A stretch of 64,000 nucleotides of DNA, taken from sequence record PQ356294.1; one strand, given 5' to 3'. Under the pieces are notes generated by a model. The model worked only from the letters and a program-made list of their open reading frames with translations, was not told where the DNA came from and searched no databases. Made by a program: the position numbers and the translations under genes. The stretch is from Escherichia phage Ec_YwIITB1. Below, in pieces: positions 4,794 through 49,324 of the stretch (position 1 is the first letter of the stretch; every line of letters starts with the position of its first letter).

Positions 4794-5278
4794 TTTAATT
4801 TCCTGCATTCAGTGATAAAATTATTTAAATTTTGAGCATATTTCTTTTCATCAAAAATCTTTTGTTGCCTGCGCATCCGCCATGGCATTTCAATGAACAT
4901 GTACCATATTCCTGATAATATTGATGCTGTAAAAATATTAACAAGTATGATTAAAAGAATCCAATCTTCCGTTCTGCCTACTGGACTTTCTATAAAAAAG
5001 CAAAATACAAATGATGACACAGGAAAACTAATGATATACCACAGAATCATAATCTTATCTGTGAACCATTCAGCATTCGTTAACTTAGCACGGCCATTAT
5101 GAATACACACGAATTTATCATCTGTTACAGTAGATGGCTTAACTGCTTGATATCCCATTCTAAACTCCCTAATTAATCGTTTCTTTGTATCTTCAGAACA
5201 GCCGCTCCAGTCAACTCTATCAACTGAAATGCCATCGTCCCCATCATCTAAATCATACCAGTGAGTTTTTAAAATCAT
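4790..5278 (-). CDS. small membrane protein (e.2-region)
   Basis: 162 aa with hydrophobic helices; ATGA overlap with upstream stop. Confidence 0.55.
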   Translation of the reverse strand: MILKTHWYDLDDGDDGISVDRVDWSGCSEDTKKRLIREFRMGYQAVKPSTVTDDKFVCIHNGRAKLTNAEWFTDKIMILWYIISFPVSSFVFCFFIESPVGRTEDWILLIILVNIFTASILSGIWYMFIEMPWRMRRQQKIFDEKKYAQNLNNFITECRKLK

Positions 5279-5650
5279 TTAATTTTCCTACAATCACTCA
5301 CAAACTCTTCCATTGATTCTTTTTCAATATAAGACATATAGCTATTATATTCCTTTAATTGTATTTTGTAATCCTTTTTTCTTTGCCAATTTATTTTAAA
5401 ATTATCATAATGAAAATATAACATGGTACCAAAGAATGAAAATAATGAAATCGCTATAGTATAATGAAGTTCACTCCAAACTTCTATTATATCTACTATA
5501 CCGCTGACGTTACTGCGGATGTTTAAAATAAAACAGTCAATTAACAATCCAATAAAAACTACCCGCAAGAGCTGCAGCCAATGCCACAGCAAAAATTGAA
5601 AATGACTCAGAAAAAGAATATTTGACTTTATTTAGTTTTGGCTTTTGCAT
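5275..5650 (-). CDS. small membrane protein, apparently frameshifted
   Basis: ATG at 5650 with AGGAA RBS opens a 37-codon frame (MQKPKLNKVKYSFSESFSIFAVALAAALAG...) that overlaps the 105-aa ORF 5275..5592, which itself only has a TTG start; the two join if a T5 run near 5554..5558 is really T4. Confidence 0.4.
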
Positions 5651-6642: not shown

Positions 6643-7236
6643 TTATTTCAGAGAATTAATGTATTCCTGAACATCGGCAGAGGTAGTTTCAACCCCGGAA
6701 ATATTACCATTAAAGGTTTCAACTCGAGCAAGAGTATCTTCAATATCAACCTTAGTCAGCGCTGCAATTTCAACTACATCATCGGCAGTACTAATTCCAA
6801 GGGCATTTGCCGCACGAGTTTCACGGATATATTCCAATTTAACTGCAAGCTCTTGACGAGCATCATCTAACTCAACTACTTTCTTGGCGATTTCAATTCG
6901 CATTTCAGCATAACCGTCAGCTTTAGTAGTCAACTGCTCAGCTGTTCGACGATATAGCAAGCCGAGTTTAGCGTGCATTGTTACATCTTGACCTTCGGAA
7001 AGAAGTTTACGAATTTCACGCTCTTTTGATTCAGCCTGTCGATTCTTTTCGACAATAAGTTCACGAATACGTTTTTCTTCATTAATAGATTTAACAGAAG
7101 CAGTTTTTAGATCTTTAATTTTATCAAGCAGTTTTGCCGCCGCAGCAGTATACTGTTCTTCAACAGATAGATTTTTAGCCATAGCAGAACCAAGTTTAGT
7201 GCGAATAAACTCAACAATTTTCTTTAGTGTGTTCAT
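6643..7236 (-). CDS. coiled-coil hypothetical protein
   Basis: 197 aa, heptad-rich K/E/R/A/L sequence; weak architectural resemblance to PspA/IM30 family, unverified. Confidence 0.5.
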
Positions 7237-7278: not shown

Positions 7279-7809
7279 TTATATCATACTATTTAAGAGA
7301 TGTAAACTATTTTTAATTTTACAAATTCGTTCAGCTTCTTCAACGGCGGCGGCGATAATGCTTTTAGCTATAGGAGTACTAATACTAGTAGCTTTTACAC
7401 TTAACACGATTTCTTTATCTTTACTAGGCCAACCCCATGATTTTTCACCATGAGTGCCTTTAATTACAGCAGACACCTCAAGTGAGCATCCACTGTCACA
7501 TGTTTTTACATTAACAACCCAAGGGTCACTTTTCTCAACCGATTTCTCAGCCGGTTTATCCCAGTAAATATTAAGAATACGTGGGACATCAAATTTAGCA
7601 GGGCAAATCTTAACTGTAAGACCTTCGCTTTCTAGCCAATTAATAAGAGGGCGTTCATACATGCGGCGATGTGGGCTTTGGACTCGACAAGCCTTGTGCC
7701 CATTGCTTGCGGCTTCACTAAGCTGTTCTAATACCTGTTTTTGCATTATTGATAAGATATCATCAAAAGATTTTTCGGAAGTTTCATTCAGTTCGGTATA
7801 AAGAGACAT
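7279..7809 (-). CDS. hypothetical protein
   Basis: ORF track begins at TTG (7824); ATG (MSLYTELNE...) at 7809 with GAGGAAA RBS. Confidence 0.5.
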   Translation of the reverse strand: MSLYTELNETSEKSFDDILSIMQKQVLEQLSEAASNGHKACRVQSPHRRMYERPLINWLESEGLTVKICPAKFDVPRILNIYWDKPAEKSVEKSDPWVVNVKTCDSGCSLEVSAVIKGTHGEKSWGWPSKDKEIVLSVKATSISTPIAKSIIAAAVEEAERICKIKNSLHLLNSMI

Positions 7810-7830
7810 AGCGGTTTTCCTCAAATTGTA

Positions 7831-7865
7831 GGCTCATAATATCTCAATCATGAGCCTGTGTAAAC
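7831..7865 (-). promoter_or_regulatory. T4-type early promoter with stem-loop (PeSL-like)
   Basis: Minus strand GTTTAC-N18-TATTAT; inverted repeat ggctcat/atgagcc encloses the -10 region. Confidence 0.55.
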
Positions 7866-8129
7866 TTATTTCATATTATTGAAATATTCTTCTGCGATTT
7901 CGTCGTTATCGTGGTAAACTTTAGAAGACAGTTTAACATAACCTTCTGCTGTAAACATATTAATCACAACTTTTACAGTATACCACTGACCATCTTCATT
8001 ACCCATTACTGCGTAAGTTTCAAACATCGGATGATCAGGACCGATAACTTTAATATCATTCACTGTACGACCGAAATCTTCTGAAACGCATTTCATAAAG
8101 AAGTTGAACAGTTCGCCGTAATTATCCAT
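7866..8129 (-). CDS. hypothetical protein (87 aa)
   Basis: ORF track starts at TTG 8141; ATG (MDNYGELF...) at 8129 with GGAG RBS. Confidence 0.5.
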   Translation of the reverse strand: MDNYGELFNFFMKCVSEDFGRTVNDIKVIGPDHPMFETYAVMGNEDGQWYTVKVVINMFTAEGYVKLSSKVYHDNDEIAEEYFNNMK

Positions 8130-8172
8130 TTCATTCTCCAAGTTGTTTTCTATATCAGTAGTTGATAGTTGT

Positions 8173-8202
8173 ATAGTACCATGGAAGAACAGAGATGTAA
8201 AC
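8173..8202 (-). promoter_or_regulatory. T4-type early promoter
   Basis: Minus strand aaaacgGTTTACa-N18-TACTAT upstream of gene 7866..8129. Confidence 0.5.
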
Positions 8203-8323
8203 CGTTTTGTGAAAAAAAGTTTTAGGGAATTCTGGGGCAGGGAGGGGCAATTAAAAGGTAGGATAATATATTATAAAGGGTATAAACTAAATGATGCCTA
8301 GAAAGGCCCAGAAAGGCCTAGAT

Positions 8324-9916: not shown

Positions 9917-9992
9917 TGGTCGAGGCAGTAGGGATCGAACCTACGACCTAGGACTTAGAAGGTCCTTGCTCTTCCTTCTGAGCTATGCCTCG
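9917..9992 (-). tRNA. tRNA-Arg (anticodon UCU)
   Basis: Manual cloverleaf: acceptor CGAGGCA/TGCCTCG, D stem GCTC/GAGC, anticodon loop CTTCTAA, T arm GTAGG-TTCGATC-CCTAC, encoded CCA. Confidence 0.85.
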
Positions 9993-10161
9993 AACCCATG
10001 ACTACGAGAATCACAATCTCGAGTTCTACCAACTGAACTACGGCCACATTAATACCTACTCCAACAATCAAGATGTCTTCACACGAAATTAAGAGAAGAG
10101 TGATCAGTTCAACCCCTATAATCGCGTCAAGTAGATATTAATGTGACAGTTGTCACAAATT
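9993..10161 (-). ncRNA. tRNA-like structured RNA (candidate counterpart of T4 stable RNA species 1/2)
   Basis: The 53 nt next to tRNA-Arg fold as acceptor strand GTGGCCG, D arm GTTC/GAAC, perfect anticodon arm CGAGA-TTGTGAT-TCTCG (GUG) and T-stem 5' strand, then run directly into tRNA-Arg with no T-stem 3' strand or acceptor 3' strand; hairpin tgtgaca/tgtcaca at 10141..10160. Confidence 0.4.
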
Positions 10162-27664: not shown

Positions 27665-28323
27665 TGAGTTTACTTAATAATAAAGCGGGAGTTATTTCCC
27701 GCTTAGCAGATTTTCTTGGTTTTAGAACTAAGAAAAATGATATTTCGGTTATGAATAATCAGCCAGTAGGTGCTGTAACAATTTCACAAATAGCAAAAGG
27801 GTTTTATGACCCAAATGTAGAATCTGCTATTAATGATGTTAGAAATATGGCAGAGCAACAGGTTGGAGCTGTATTAGTTAATATAAGTGGCGTATCTCCT
27901 ACTGGCGTGCAGCAAACAGACTATTGGTCATTTGAAGGAACTGTCAATGATACTTCAGCCAAACCAGGTGACCCGGTTATTGTTAACATGTTTGGCATTC
28001 CTGTTAAAGCTACTAATGGAATGACTTCAATCGAATTTACCAGTGCCGTTAGAACAGCTCTACAGGAAATGGTTGCAAAATTTATTGCAATTGATTCATT
28101 TGAAGACCATCCTACCATAGGAAATAAAATACAAGTTAAGTATTTAGATAACCAAGAACATATCTTAGAACAATACTCTGATAAAGGAATTACTTTCAAA
28201 CAAGAAATAATTTCTCCTTCTAAACCTGGGTATGGAACTTGGCAATTATTAGGTGCGCAAACTGTTACGCTAGATAGTCACACACAACCTACAGTATTTT
28301 ATTATTTTGAGAGAATAGCATGA
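27664..28323 (+). CDS. 11: gp11 baseplate wedge protein (short tail fiber attachment)
   Basis: [23 protein letters not shown] at the ATGA overlap with gp10 stop gives 219 aa, the T4 gp11 length (ORF track extends upstream to 27646). Confidence 0.9.
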
Positions 28324-29870
28324 GTAACAATACATATCAGCACGTATCAAATGAATCAAAATATGTTAAATTCGATCCTACTGGATCGAATTTTCCTGAC
28401 ACTGTCACGACAGTGCAGTCTGCATTATCAAAAATAAGTAATATCGGCGTAAATGGTATTCCTGATGCAACTATGGAAGTTAAAGGAATAGCAATGATTG
28501 CGTCAGAACAAGAGGTTTTAGATGGAACTAATAACTCTAAAATCGTTACACCAGCTACATTAGCAACAAGATTATTGTATCCAAATGCTACTGAAACTAA
28601 ATATGGTTTAACGCGCTATTCAACAAATGAAGAAACTTTAGAAGGCTCAGATAATAATTCGTCGATAACTCCACAAAAATTGAAATACCATACTGACGAT
28701 GTATTCCAAAACAGGTATTCATCTGAATCATCAAATGGAGTTATTAAAATATCATCTACACCTGCGGCTTTGGCTGGTGTAGATGATACTACGGCAATGA
28801 CTCCATTAAAAACCCAAAAACTTGCAATAAAATTAATTTCACAAATAGCTCCTTCAGAAGACACAGCATCAGAATCTGTTAGAGGTGTAGTTCAGTTATC
28901 AACTGTCGCTCAAACTCGTCAAGGAACTCTTCGCGAAGGATATGCAATTTCCCCATATACCTTTATGAATTCCGTTGCAACACAAGAATATAAGGGTGTT
29001 ATACGTTTAGGAACGCAGTCGGAAATTAACAGTAATTTGGGAGATGTTGCAGTAACAGGCGAAACATTAAATGGTCGAGGAGCTACTGGTTCTATGCGCG
29101 GTGTAGTAAAATTAACGACGCAAGCCGGTATTGCCCCTGAAGGTGATAGCTCTGGAGCATTAGCGTGGAACGCAGATGTAATTAATACTCGTGGTGGACA
29201 AACTATTAATGGTTCTTTAAATTTAGACCATCTTACAGCAAATGGAATTTGGTCACGCGGTGGAATGTGGAAAAATGGCGATCAACCTGTTGCCACTGAA
29301 AGATATGCGTCCGAAAGGGTTCCAGTTGGAACTATTATGATGTTTGCGGGTGATTCAGCACCTCCAGGTTGGATTATGTGTCACGGTGGAACCGTGTCAG
29401 GTGACCAATTTCCTGATTATAGAAACGTAGTTGGATCAAGATTTGGTGGTGATTGGAATAATCCTGGTATTCCTGATATGCGAGGTCTTTTCGTCAGAGG
29501 AGCCGGTACTGGCGGTCATATTTTAAATCAACGAGGACAAGATGGTTATGGAAAGGATAGACTTGGTGTAGGATGTGACGGAATGCATGTTGGTGGTGTC
29601 CAGGCACAACAAATGTCATACCATAAACACGCCGGTGGTTGGGGAGAACATAACAGAAGTGAAGGCCCATTTGGCGCGTCAGTTTATCAAGGATATCTTG
29701 GAACTAGAAAATATGCCGACTGGGATAATGCTTCATACTTCACTAATGATGGATTTGAATTAGGTGGACCGAGAGATGCTCATGGTACACTTAATCGTGA
29801 AGGATTAATTGGTTATGAAACTAGACCATGGAATATATCATTAAACTATATTATTAAAATTCATTACTAA
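28320..29870 (+). CDS. 12: gp12 short tail fiber
   Basis: 516 aa at the T4 gp12 position. Confidence 0.9.
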
Positions 29871-29879
29871 GGATTACAA

Positions 29880-31349
29880 ATGATTGAATTAAAAGAGTTA
29901 CCTTTTGTTGATAGCGCTCCTGACGAAGGTCAAGAGCGTATTTCATGGATTAAAAATGGTGAAGAAATATTAGGAGCTAGTACTAAGTATGGAAATGATG
30001 GATCAATGAATAGACCTATTGTTTCCGTGTTTAAAAATGTCGAAGTTCTTGATGAAAATGTGGGAATTCTTAAAACTGCCATTGAAACATCACAGAAAGA
30101 TATTAAAACAATTCAAGGAGTTTTAGATGTATCAGGAGATATAGAAGCGCTATCACAGATCAGCGTTAATAAAAATGATATATCAAGTTTAAAGACGCTC
30201 ACAAGTGAACATACTGATATATTAAATGGTACAAATACTACGGTTGATAATATTCTTTCTGATATTGGTCCATTTAATTCGCAAGCAAATTCAGTTTATA
30301 GAACGATTAGAAATGATTTGCTGTGGATTAAAAGGGAACTAGGACAATATGCTGGACAAGATATTAATGGTCTTCCTGTTGTAGGAAATCCTAGCACAGG
30401 AATGAAGCATCGCATTATTAATAATACTGATGTCATCACTTCACAAGGAATACGTTTAAGCGAATTAGAAACAAAATTTATTGAATCTGATGTAGGTTCG
30501 CTTACAATCGAAGTAGGAAATCTTAGACAGGAATTAGGACAAAGACCGCCTTCATTTAGTGAAAGTATATATTCGCGTGTGCATAATTTAGATCAATCAC
30601 AAATTAATCTTAATTCCGAAATTAAATCTATCAAAACTTCTATTGGATATCCAGGAAATACTTCAATAATCACAGATGTTAACACTAATACACGAGAAAT
30701 TTCAGCTTTAACTGATGAGCTAAATAAAAGCGGAGGTGTTAAACAGCGATTAACTGTCATTGAAACATCAATTGGCTCAGATGATATTCCTTCTAGTATT
30801 AAAGGACAAATCAAAAATCACACAACTTCAATCGAAGCTCTAAATGGAATCGTCGGTGAAAACACTTCGTCTGGTTTAAGAGCGAATGTTTCATGGTTAA
30901 ATCAAATTGTTGGAACTGACTCCAGCGGAGGACAACCGTCTCCTTCTGGATCTCTATTAAACCGAGTTTCAGTTGAAGGAGAAGTTTCTGTTTTTAGGCT
31001 GAATAATGTTCAAAATCTACAAGTAGAGATAGGAAATAATAGAACAATTCAGGAATTAAAGGGCAAGTTATTGAGCTTACTTCCTTTATAAATGGAAATA
31101 ATCCTGACGGATCAACTGTTGAAGAACGCGGATTAACCAATTCTGTAAAAACGAACGAAACCAACATTGCAGCACACACACAGGAAGTAAGTAGTAATAC
31201 AGCCAAGAAGTAGTATATCTTCATTACAGGCGGATGTTCAGACTTTACAGGAAGCAGGTTATATTCCTGAAGCTCCAAAAGATGGCCAAGCTTACGTTCG
31301 TAAAGACGGCGAATGGGTATTACTTTCTACCTTTTTATCACCAGCATAA
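29880..31349 (+). CDS. wac: fibritin (neck whiskers), frame-disrupted in this sequence
   Basis: 403-codon ORF ends at TAA 31089; the continuation [17 protein letters not shown]... is in another frame to TAG 31211, and the C-terminal foldon [30 protein letters not shown] is back in the original frame. Confidence 0.8.
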
Positions 31350-31380: not shown

Positions 31381-33082
<1,702 letters not shown>

Positions 33083-43346: not shown

Positions 43347-44908
43347 ATGACTATCAAAACTAAAGCTGAACTTTTGAACAAATGGAAGCCATTACTGGAA
43401 GGTGAAGGTTTACCGGAAATTGCTAATAGCAAACAAGCGATTATCGCTAAAATCTTTGAAAACCAGGAAAAAGATTTCCAGACAGCTCCAGAGTACAAAG
43501 ACGAAAAAATCGCCCAGGCGTTCGGTTCTTTCTTAACAGAAGCTGAAATCGGTGGTGACCACGGTTACAACGCTACTAACATTGCTGCTGGTCAGACTTC
43601 TGGCGCAGTAACTCAGATTGGCCCAGCTGTTATGGGTATGGTACGTCGTGCTATTCCTAACCTGATTGCTTTCGATATTTGCGGTGTTCAGCCGATGAAT
43701 AGCCCGACTGGCCAGGTATTTGCACTGCGTGCAGTATATGGTAAAGACCCAATCGCTGCTGATGCTAAAGAAGCATTCCACCCAATGTATGGTCCAGATG
43801 CAATGTTCTCTGGTCAGGGTGCTGCTAAGAAATTCGCGCTAGCACACAAACTACTGTAAGTTGGAACCATTTACACCTATTTCTTCCAGGAAACTGGTAC
43901 TGTATATCTGCAAGCTACCTCTAGTTAAAGCAAATTGATACAAGTGCTTCTGACGCAGCTAAATTAGATGCTGAAATTAAGAAACAAATGGAAGCTGGCG
44001 TATTGGTAGAAATCGCTGAAGGTATGGCTACTTCTATCGCTGAACTTCAGGAAGGTTTCAACGGTTCTACCGATAACCCATGGAATGAAATGGGATTCCG
44101 TATCGATAAACAAGTTATCGAAGCTAAATCTCGTCAGCTGAAAGCTGCTTACTCTATCGAATTAGCACAAGACCTCCGCGCTGTTCACGGTATGGATGCT
44201 GATGCTGAACTGTCTGGTATTCTGGCTACCGAAATCATGCTGGAAATCAACCGTGAAGTTGTTGATTGGATTAACTACTCAGCTCAGGTTGGTAAATCTG
44301 GTATGACCCTGACTCCGGGTTCTAAAGCTGGTGTATTTGACTTCCAGGATCCGATTGATATTCGCGGTGCTCGCTGGGCAGGTGAATCCTTTAAAGCTCT
44401 GTTGTTCCAGATTGACAAAGAAGCAGTTGAAATTGCTCGTCAGACCGGTCGTGGTGAAGGTAACTTCATTATCGCTTCCCGTAACGTAGTTAACGTTCTG
44501 GCTTCAGTTGATACTGGCATTTCTTATGCTGCACAGGGTCTGGCTACCGGCTTTAACACTGATACTACCAAGTCAGTATTTGCTGGTGTTCTGGGTGGTA
44601 AATACCGTGTATACATCGACCAGTATGCTAAACAGGATTATTTCACTGTAGGTTATAAAGGTCCGAACGAAATGGATGCTGGTATTTACTACGCTCCATA
44701 TGTAGCTCTGACTCCGCTGCGTGGTTCCGATCCGAAGAACTTCCAACCGGTAATGGGATTCAAAACTCGTTACGGTATCGGTATCAACCCATTTGCAGAA
44801 TCCGCTGCTCAGGCTCCGGCTTCTCGCATCCAAAGCGGTATGCCTTCTATTCTTAATAGCCTTGGTAAAAACGCTTACTTCCGCCGTGTATATGTTAAAG
44901 GTATCTAA
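43347..44908 (+). CDS. 23: gp23 major capsid protein, frame-disrupted in this sequence
   Basis: ORFs 43347..43859 (170 aa, MTIKTKAELLNKWKPLLEGEG...) and 43988..44908 (306 aa, ...MEAGVLVEIAEGMATSIAELQEGFNG... to YFRRVYVKGI) match the N- and C-terminal parts of T4 gp23; the 130 nt between them encodes the conserved middle in alternating frames with two in-frame TAA stops. Confidence 0.9.
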
Positions 44909-47894: not shown

Positions 47895-49324
47895 TTATGG
47901 ATAGGTATAGATGATACCAGTTTCTAAAGCAGTTTTATGAATGATGTATCCATTGCGTGATTCTTGAACATCAACTTCTGGATAGTCTTTCATCATCTTC
48001 TGAAGAGTGTAACGATGCAGGTAGTATTTACTGTCTGGATCTTCAGTTTTCCAATCTTTACCTTCTTCGGTCATTTTTTGGATTTCATCCATAACCCACC
48101 AGCCGCACCAGATATAAGCCGAAGTACGATGTGGAAGAGGATGAACATAAGGCAATTCACCTTCTGGTTCCGGAGCAACTTTATCAGTTACCTGAACTTG
48201 GCCTGTTGCTTTAACTGTTTTACTATCATAGTCGGTTGCTGTAACGACAGCAGTAACTTCAATAGTTTGACTTCCAATAGATGAGGTGTCAACGGTGTAT
48301 ACATTAGTTGACCCTTCTACAGGAGAAGAATCTTTCTTCCATGAATAAGTAATTTGAGCTGCTTCAGGTGCTCCGTGACATTAGCCGTAAATGTAGCCGA
48401 AGCATCTTGCTGAACGTTAATAGAAGGAGGAGTCAATGTAACCTGTGGATTCATTGTCTTCTTATTAACTGTCAATGATACTTCATTAGAAGTAACTTCC
48501 TTTGCATCATAATTTTCAGCCGTTACTTGGGCTACACACTTAACTGTTTTAGCTCCAACTGTGGTAGGAGTATAGTTAAATGTAGTAGTAGTTTCTCCAT
48601 CGACCAGAGAACCGTCAACATACCACTGATACGTAGCAGACGCTCCTGGTGGCTGTGAAGCCAAGGTAGCAGTAAATTGAACTGGGGTTCCAATAACTCC
48701 TGCTGGAGGATTAGCAGGAGTTACGGCTAACGTAGTTGTCTGTGTTTTCTTATTAACAGTCAGTGACACTTCATTAGAAGTAACTTCCTTTGCATCATAA
48801 TCTGTCGCGGTTACTTGAGCTACACACTTAATTGTTTTAACTCCGCTTGCGTCAGGAGTGTAATTGAATGTAGTGCCAGTTGCTTCGCCCACAGGAGAAC
48901 CGTCAACGTGCCATTGATACGTAGCGTTTGCACTTGGTGGCTGTGAAGCTAAGGCAGCGGTAAATTCAATTGGAGTTCCAATCACTCCAGCATCAGGGCT
49001 ACCAGGAGTTACAGCTAAAATAGTTGTTTGTGTCTTATTTTGAACCGTGATAGTTGTCGTAGTTTCTGCTGTTTCAGGTTCAGGTTCAGATTCAGATTCT
49101 GGAACTGTATTTGTTGCAACGACTTTAATAGTCTTTTGACCTGCAGGTCCTTTTAATACATAGCCAAAAGTTGCCGCTTCTCCATCTTGCGGAACATTAT
49201 CTACACTCCAAGCATAGGTAATAGTTCCATCTCCAGTTTCACCACTGGGTGTAGCAGTAAACTGCTTGGTTTCATCAATAACTCCTGTTGGGGTTTTAGG
49301 AGTTATATCAACTGTAAAAGTCAT
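47895..49324 (-). CDS. hoc: Hoc outer capsid protein (Ig-like domains), frame-disrupted in this sequence
   Basis: N-terminal ORF 48317..49324 (MTFTVDITPKTPTGVIDETKQFTATPSG...) with repeated Ig-like domains ends after ...ANVT; the fourth domain and the capsid-binding C-terminus (...APEPEGELPYVHPLPHR... to IIYTYP) are intact in the +2 frame down to 47895; the junction is at a GG run near 48373. Confidence 0.85.

Follow-up and report, generated by a model that had tools for sequence, protein, structure and literature searches.

Fibritin and the wac locus of the window

Among described systems, the closest is the fibritin of phage T4, gpwac, a protein of 487 residues (structures 2BSG, 3J2O, 1AA0, and 1AVY; Pfam family PF07921). 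Folding of T4-type fibritin depends on the C-terminal foldon (PMC3797505), the protein is not absolutely essential (PMC3004832), and phages of the wac-null type are viable, although they attach their tail fibres slowly (PMC3004832; PMC3797505). Fine-scale mosaicism of alleles is natural in wac (PMC3797505).

The stretch of DNA analysed here, hereafter the window, spans 64,000 nucleotides (nt) and covers that part of a T4-like genome (Tequatrovirus) in which the structural genes lie, with ZCEC15 as its best match (97.2% over 22 kb). As expected of a T4-type fibritin gene, wac is found between gene 12 and gene 13, the position that gpwac has in T4, with the following features around it.

28320..29870, plus strand: gene 12 (short tail fibre), the upstream neighbour of wac, an intact open reading frame (ORF) of 516 residues
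31352..31369, plus strand: GC-rich hairpin UGGGGCC-GCAA-GGCCCCA directly after wac, intact
31381..32310, plus strand: gene 13 (neck protein), the downstream neighbour of wac, an intact ORF of 309 residues

The exact gene 12 protein is present in two Logan contigs and shares 95-98% identity with gp12 of PP01 and ZCEC15, while the exact gene 13 protein is present on 23 contigs. The hairpin, which folds at -15.7 kcal/mol (z=-3.26), is kept in all aligned relatives. From its start at 29880, wac itself matches approximately 500 phage records, at an identity of 90.7% or less.

Fibritin sequence is spread over two reading frames

An earlier note on this DNA had described a wac frame that stops at TAA 31089, fibritin-like sequence that continues in the +2 frame up to TAG 31211, and a foldon that is back in the original frame to 31349. 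Three-frame translation bore out each element of this layout and delimits three pieces.

29880..31091, plus strand: frame-0 wac ORF, 403 codons from ATG 29880, ending at TAA 31089-31091
31043..31213, plus strand: frame +2 wac segment, 56 fibritin codons (NNSGIKGQ...NTAKK) followed by TAG 31211-31213
31191..31349, plus strand: frame-0 C-terminal foldon piece, open to TAA 31347-31349

Unlike T4 gpwac, the wac gene of the window thus runs through frames 0, +2, and 0, and the single uninterrupted ORF of approximately 485 to 487 codons expected of a T4-type fibritin is missing; frame 0 contains additional stops at 31134, 31146, and 31188. T4-type fibritins are expected to have a conserved N-terminal domain of approximately 50 residues and, after it, a long segmented coiled-coil shaft. 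Residues 1 to 388 of the 403-codon ORF are authentic fibritin, comprising both of these parts, and they align without gaps to fibritins of 485 residues, with the N terminus conserved. The first shift lies approximately 45 nt upstream of TAA 31089 and not at this stop, so that residues 389 to 403, encoded by the final 15 codons, are already out-of-frame junk. A Pfam search did not find PF07921 (Fibritin_C) in the 403-residue product, and the same family was recovered from the +2 piece (E=1.3e-14) and from the frame-0 tail (E=5.5e-11). Over 45 residues read in this shifted +2 frame, 43 agree with the RB32/PBM-1 allele, which is far above chance. The C-terminal foldon of a T4-type fibritin is present as well: the piece that carries it shares 98.5% nucleotide identity with sb1, aligns to the T4 fibritin structures 2BSG, 1AA0, and 1AVY, and encodes a foldon essentially identical to that of T4.

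If the sequence is correct, its product would lack the foldon and resemble C-terminally truncated fibritins, which fail to trimerise, and the whiskerless mutants of T4, i.e., a wac-null-like situation. According to such a reading, the indels are real, the product of at most 403 residues (388 of fibritin and 15 of junk) cannot trimerise, and virions would be without collar and whiskers; the phage would survive since fibritin only speeds the attachment of long tail fibres and controls fibre retraction. The dispensability of fibritin and the need of its folding for the foldon (PMC3004832, PMC3797505) agree with this, and so does the finding that no ATG, GTG, or TTG start lies upstream of the foldon piece in its frame, from which it follows that the foldon cannot be made separately. 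We nevertheless hold a genuine loss of wac to be unlikely. Classical T4 wac mutants carry single amber or deletion lesions, whereas the wac gene of the window shows five clustered length changes and no decay, as detailed below.

Five length anomalies surround the two junctions

Intact alleles of two types, sb1/ESh36/PP01 and RB32/PBM-1/Paracelsus, were aligned to the window. Between approximately 30970 and 31210, five length anomalies (-3, +3, +5, +6, and +1) were found within 250 nt, compared to zero in the remaining 1,200 nt of wac, for a net length change of +12 nt. They are located as follows.

30973..31000, plus strand: paired in-frame anomalies, -3 at approximately 30973 and +3 at approximately 30997
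31045..31049, plus strand: junction 1, a private 5-nt insertion, AGAA-CAATT-CAGGAATT, where the fibritin reading passes from frame 0 to frame +2
31190..31211, plus strand: junction 2, +6 AGTAGT (31190-31195) and +1 A in AAGAAGT (31205-31211), where the reading returns to frame 0

In the stretch 30973..31000 (16 window residues), natural alleles read VSVLEGEVSVLNNNVQ or VSTVETSVNRLNNDVQ. The first shift lies within 31043-31088, most likely at the 5-nt insertion of junction 1 (approximately 31045-31049), as judged from the alignments; this insertion is absent from every allele aligned across the site. Junction 2 is 7 nt longer than every allele compared, and no 10-mer of any sampled allele matches within 31196-31215. 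The earlier note had explained the second junction by one extra A. Deleting an A from AAGAAGT does join the two frames, although the junction amounts to +7 and not only to +1. When one A was inserted in AGAAC and one A was deleted from AAGAAGT, the repaired wac formed a single ORF of 489 codons, in which PF07921 is detected with E=4.7e-31.

The view that two simple compensating indels account for the locus could not be upheld, given the 5-nt difference at junction 1 well upstream of the TAA, the number of length anomalies, and a 489-residue repair that breaks the heptad register. A true null allele has difficulties of its own: five clustered indels without substitution decay fit spontaneous mutation poorly, and inactivation does not need a pair of frameshifts summing to zero.

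We also considered a phase-variable contingency locus, in which reversible slippage at a simple repeat would toggle fibritin. A report on T2 and T4 (bioRxiv 10.1101/2025.10.21.683753) provides a precedent for such loci, which consist of homopolymers 6 bp or longer. However, no run of this length is present at the wac frameshift sites, where the longest runs comprise 2 to 3 bases, and the length differences there amount to +5 and +7 instead of ±1 within a tract, so that we find this reading hardly credible.

A recombination junction, with two alleles joined out of register at a microhomology (e.g., AAC or AGTAGTA), was examined as a further candidate. It fits the pattern and was set aside as indistinguishable from a chimeric consensus without reads.

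Natural alleles are invariant in length and the shifted segment is conserved

The length of this region is invariant in nature. In all 40 phage matches listed, the wac alignments cover 1461 nt of the match against 1473 nt in the window, and six wac DNA alleles that diverge by up to approximately 30% all measure 308 nt between anchors, against 320 nt in the window. At the protein level, the spacing from GGQPSP to GYIPEAP is 100 residues in 78/78 cluster representatives that contain both motifs and 104 residues in the repaired window protein, which is therefore 4 residues longer where relatives do not vary, another difference from T4 gpwac. Among 120 fibritin representatives of at least 400 residues, 77 have 485 residues and all fall within 459 to 487, compared to 489 for the repaired protein. 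In a full-length protein search, the repaired protein aligned end to end with Tequatrovirus fibritins of 485 residues, at up to 89% identity, and its last 145 residues align with residues 347 to 487 of T4 fibritin.

Within wac, separate blocks of 200 nt are 99-100% identical to separate phages, making the gene a fine-scale mosaic, and a 10-mer map resolved patches of RB32, sb1, and T4 type. Compared with PBM-1, the shifted segment has 11 differences in 135 nt, 8 of them at third codon positions, and at the codon level 8 differences are synonymous and 2 nonsynonymous, a signature of purifying selection. Judging by this pattern, the segment looks like selected coding sequence without decay. With the foldon close to that of sb1 and the downstream hairpin intact as well, wac was selected as fibritin almost up to the present. 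Any real inactivation would therefore have to be very recent, yet several events would be needed for it.

The repair of the frames does not make the region normal. The repaired protein carries a 2-residue SS insertion inside the last continuous coiled-coil segment, where the a/d core reads LVNIHVNSSAQ in the repaired window protein and LINIVVAILVL in T4. A histidine of the window occupies a coiled-coil core position at which relatives have V in 74, I in 7, and T in 1 case (n=82). T4-type fibritins are expected to keep an unbroken heptad register in this segment; in the window, the SS insertion and the core histidine break it even after the best repair. The stretch 30970-31210 of wac is thus anomalous even with the frames restored.

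Other genes of the window are broken and no independent copy of the lesion was found

The genes of the window were checked by tblastn with the proteins of ZCEC15 and PP01, and gaps were listed from blastn. More than 70 other genes were intact, and private frame breaks were found in three more genes.

43347-44908: gene 23 (essential major capsid protein), split over frames, with breaks at approximately 43838-43930
47898-49324, minus strand: hoc, broken at 48375 by a private 1-nt deletion, GCTCC-GTGAC
5278-5650, minus strand: e.3, broken at 5554, where an A-run is lengthened from A4 to A5

Gene 23 opens with a 170-residue ORF that runs to TAA 43857-43859; a second in-frame stop follows at approximately 43926, and the remaining stretch of approximately 330 codons is in another frame. 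Its hypervariable loop looks like a T4-type piece (ASTQTTV) fused, out of register, with one of T-01 type (VGTIYT), and a 2-nt excess is found further on. The lesion is of the same style as that of wac. The hoc base at 48375 is present in all top database matches (97% identity); the resulting 335-residue ORF ends in junk, with the conserved C terminus in another frame. The extra A of e.3 is missing from all top matches (99% identity; 1 nt shorter), and among the indels of the window it is the only one that sits in a homopolymer.

A viable, plaque-forming phage cannot carry this gene 23, and the record therefore contains indel errors, which are concentrated where alleles diverge. Since an essential gene of the same window is broken in like manner, the wac break looks like an artefact as well. 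This also speaks against a genuine loss of wac, as it shows the record to be error-prone; the breaks in the dispensable genes hoc and e.3 point the other way, in that wac, hoc, and e.3 are all dispensable and thus genes that real loss of function would hit. The record is also not uniformly poor, given the number of intact genes.

We then looked for a second isolate carrying the lesion. Exact-pattern scans of IMG/VR with the junctions and allele-specific 20-23-mers returned one exact match, which was unrelated and due to chance, and none that was related. The corresponding scans of the JGI metagenomes for the wac junctions and allele gave no match, and in a collection of 5.8 billion proteins, there was no fibritin with the extra residues of the window and no gene with this product. 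Exact-protein look-ups found the 403-residue wac ORF, the 170-residue gene 23 fragment, and the 335-residue hoc fragment all absent from record, and a protein search with the C-terminal 145 residues of the repaired protein returned only fragments and foldon fusion constructs. The lack of a second isolate in IMG/VR, the JGI metagenomes, and the protein collection is a further argument against a true null allele.

Three observations concern sequence quality in this and related records. ARAGORN predicted 11 tRNA genes in the window, among them tRNA-Arg (9917-9992) and tRNA-His (9976-10048) on the minus strand with a 17-nt overlap; this overlap is unusual and may reflect another local sequence problem or over-prediction. 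In ZCEC15 (PQ871103), e.6 (7724-8316) is split into two ORFs through a difference in the length of a T-run, and the e.6 of the window (6646-7236) is intact and 100% identical to that of PP01, so that a reference can cause apparent frameshifts. Lastly, Shigella phage sb1 (PQ666539) provides the closest wac allele, yet many of its structural genes are annotated in two or three fragments, which clearly marks it as rich in errors and poorly suited as a reference. It was dropped as a quality reference on account of these split genes, and PP01 and ZCEC15 were used in its place.

Translational recoding of wac is not expected

Full-length fibritin could also be produced from the sequence as recorded if ribosomes shifted twice, by -1 within 31043-31088, e.g., at A_AAG_GGC (31058-31064), and by +1 at AAG_TAG (31208-31213), with a level that is perhaps regulated. 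The locus does resemble the -1 shift of dnaX, the +1 shift of prfB, and the bypass of T4 gene 60 in two respects: junction 1 contains a heptamer that is formally in phase, and junction 2 a stop codon. Upon inspection, A_AAG_GGC is formally an X_XXY_YYZ heptamer in the correct phase, and a slip on it would give residues close to the natural fibritin sequence. The +1 shift of prfB uses a pause at a stop codon in the A site, and TAG 31211 in the A site would provide a pause of this type.

The other hallmarks of those systems (a stimulatory structure, good re-pairing, conservation, and matched take-off and landing codons) are, however, lacking in wac. The expected stimulatory structure is absent downstream of either site, as the folds (z=-0.20 and +0.52) are no better than those of shuffled sequence. 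At the heptamer, tRNA-Gly on GGC re-pairs poorly with GGG, and an out-of-frame reading of the conserved GGAATTAAAGG is enough to produce this heptamer. AAG_TAG offers no acceptable +1 slippery codon; re-pairing from AAG to AGU would be noncognate, and the upstream sequence lacks a Shine-Dalgarno-like element. None of approximately 500 related phage genes needs such recoding and the shifts occur in no relative. No such motifs accompany the breaks in gene 23, hoc, and e.3. Programmed recoding is thus very improbable. A bypass of the gene 60 type was discarded: translation that arrives at TAA 31089 has already left the fibritin frame, and a hop from there cannot restore fibritin.

The wac gene is probably mis-recorded

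Taken together, these results make it probable that the wac breaks are errors in the record, perhaps from a consensus of mixed alleles, and that the phage makes normal fibritin. The earlier note had left the choice between indel errors and genuine truncation; the breaks in gene 23, hoc, and e.3, which form the strongest single argument, favour errors, but not the two simple compensating indels then envisaged. We propose that the locus is an ordinary T4-type wac of Tequatrovirus whose last quarter has been mis-recorded, and that the breaks at approximately 31045 and 31205, together with the -3, +3, and +6 anomalies, would have arisen by errors of sequencing, consensus calling, or assembly. From the frames, the private indels, the invariant length of natural alleles, the signature of selection, and the other broken genes, we infer a technical cause, and a plausible process would be the collapse of more than one wac allele into one consensus within a hypervariable mosaic stretch. 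Reads forced onto a diverged reference offer an alternative plausible cause, and low-quality reads are also a candidate. The real phage would then most likely produce full-length fibritin of approximately 485 residues with a working foldon.

Some observations run counter to errors in the record. The junctions in wac do not have the form of classic homopolymer errors, and the natural mosaicism of wac means that the patchwork itself is no proof of chimeric assembly. The sb1 deposit, in which frameshifts likewise split structural genes into two or three coding sequences (gp3, gp6, gp9, gp10, gp12, terminase, sheath, and gp23), offers a partial parallel. Its breaks are scattered through conserved genes, whereas those of the window are few (wac, gene 23, hoc, and e.3) and, in wac and gene 23, are found at switches of allele type inside hypervariable stretches.

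Errors in the record being the favoured explanation, the consequences are chiefly for annotation: wac should be marked here as frameshifted or of low quality and not be taken for a truncated fibritin or a new allele, and like caution is due for gene 23, hoc, and e.3 of the window. Should recoding prove true, whisker production would be translationally tunable. Were the breaks to be confirmed, the isolate would represent a natural wac-null phage, a whiskerless Tequatrovirus with a foldon-less fibritin, and would be of mild interest for the control of tail-fibre deployment, wac-null phages being already known as laboratory mutants of T4.
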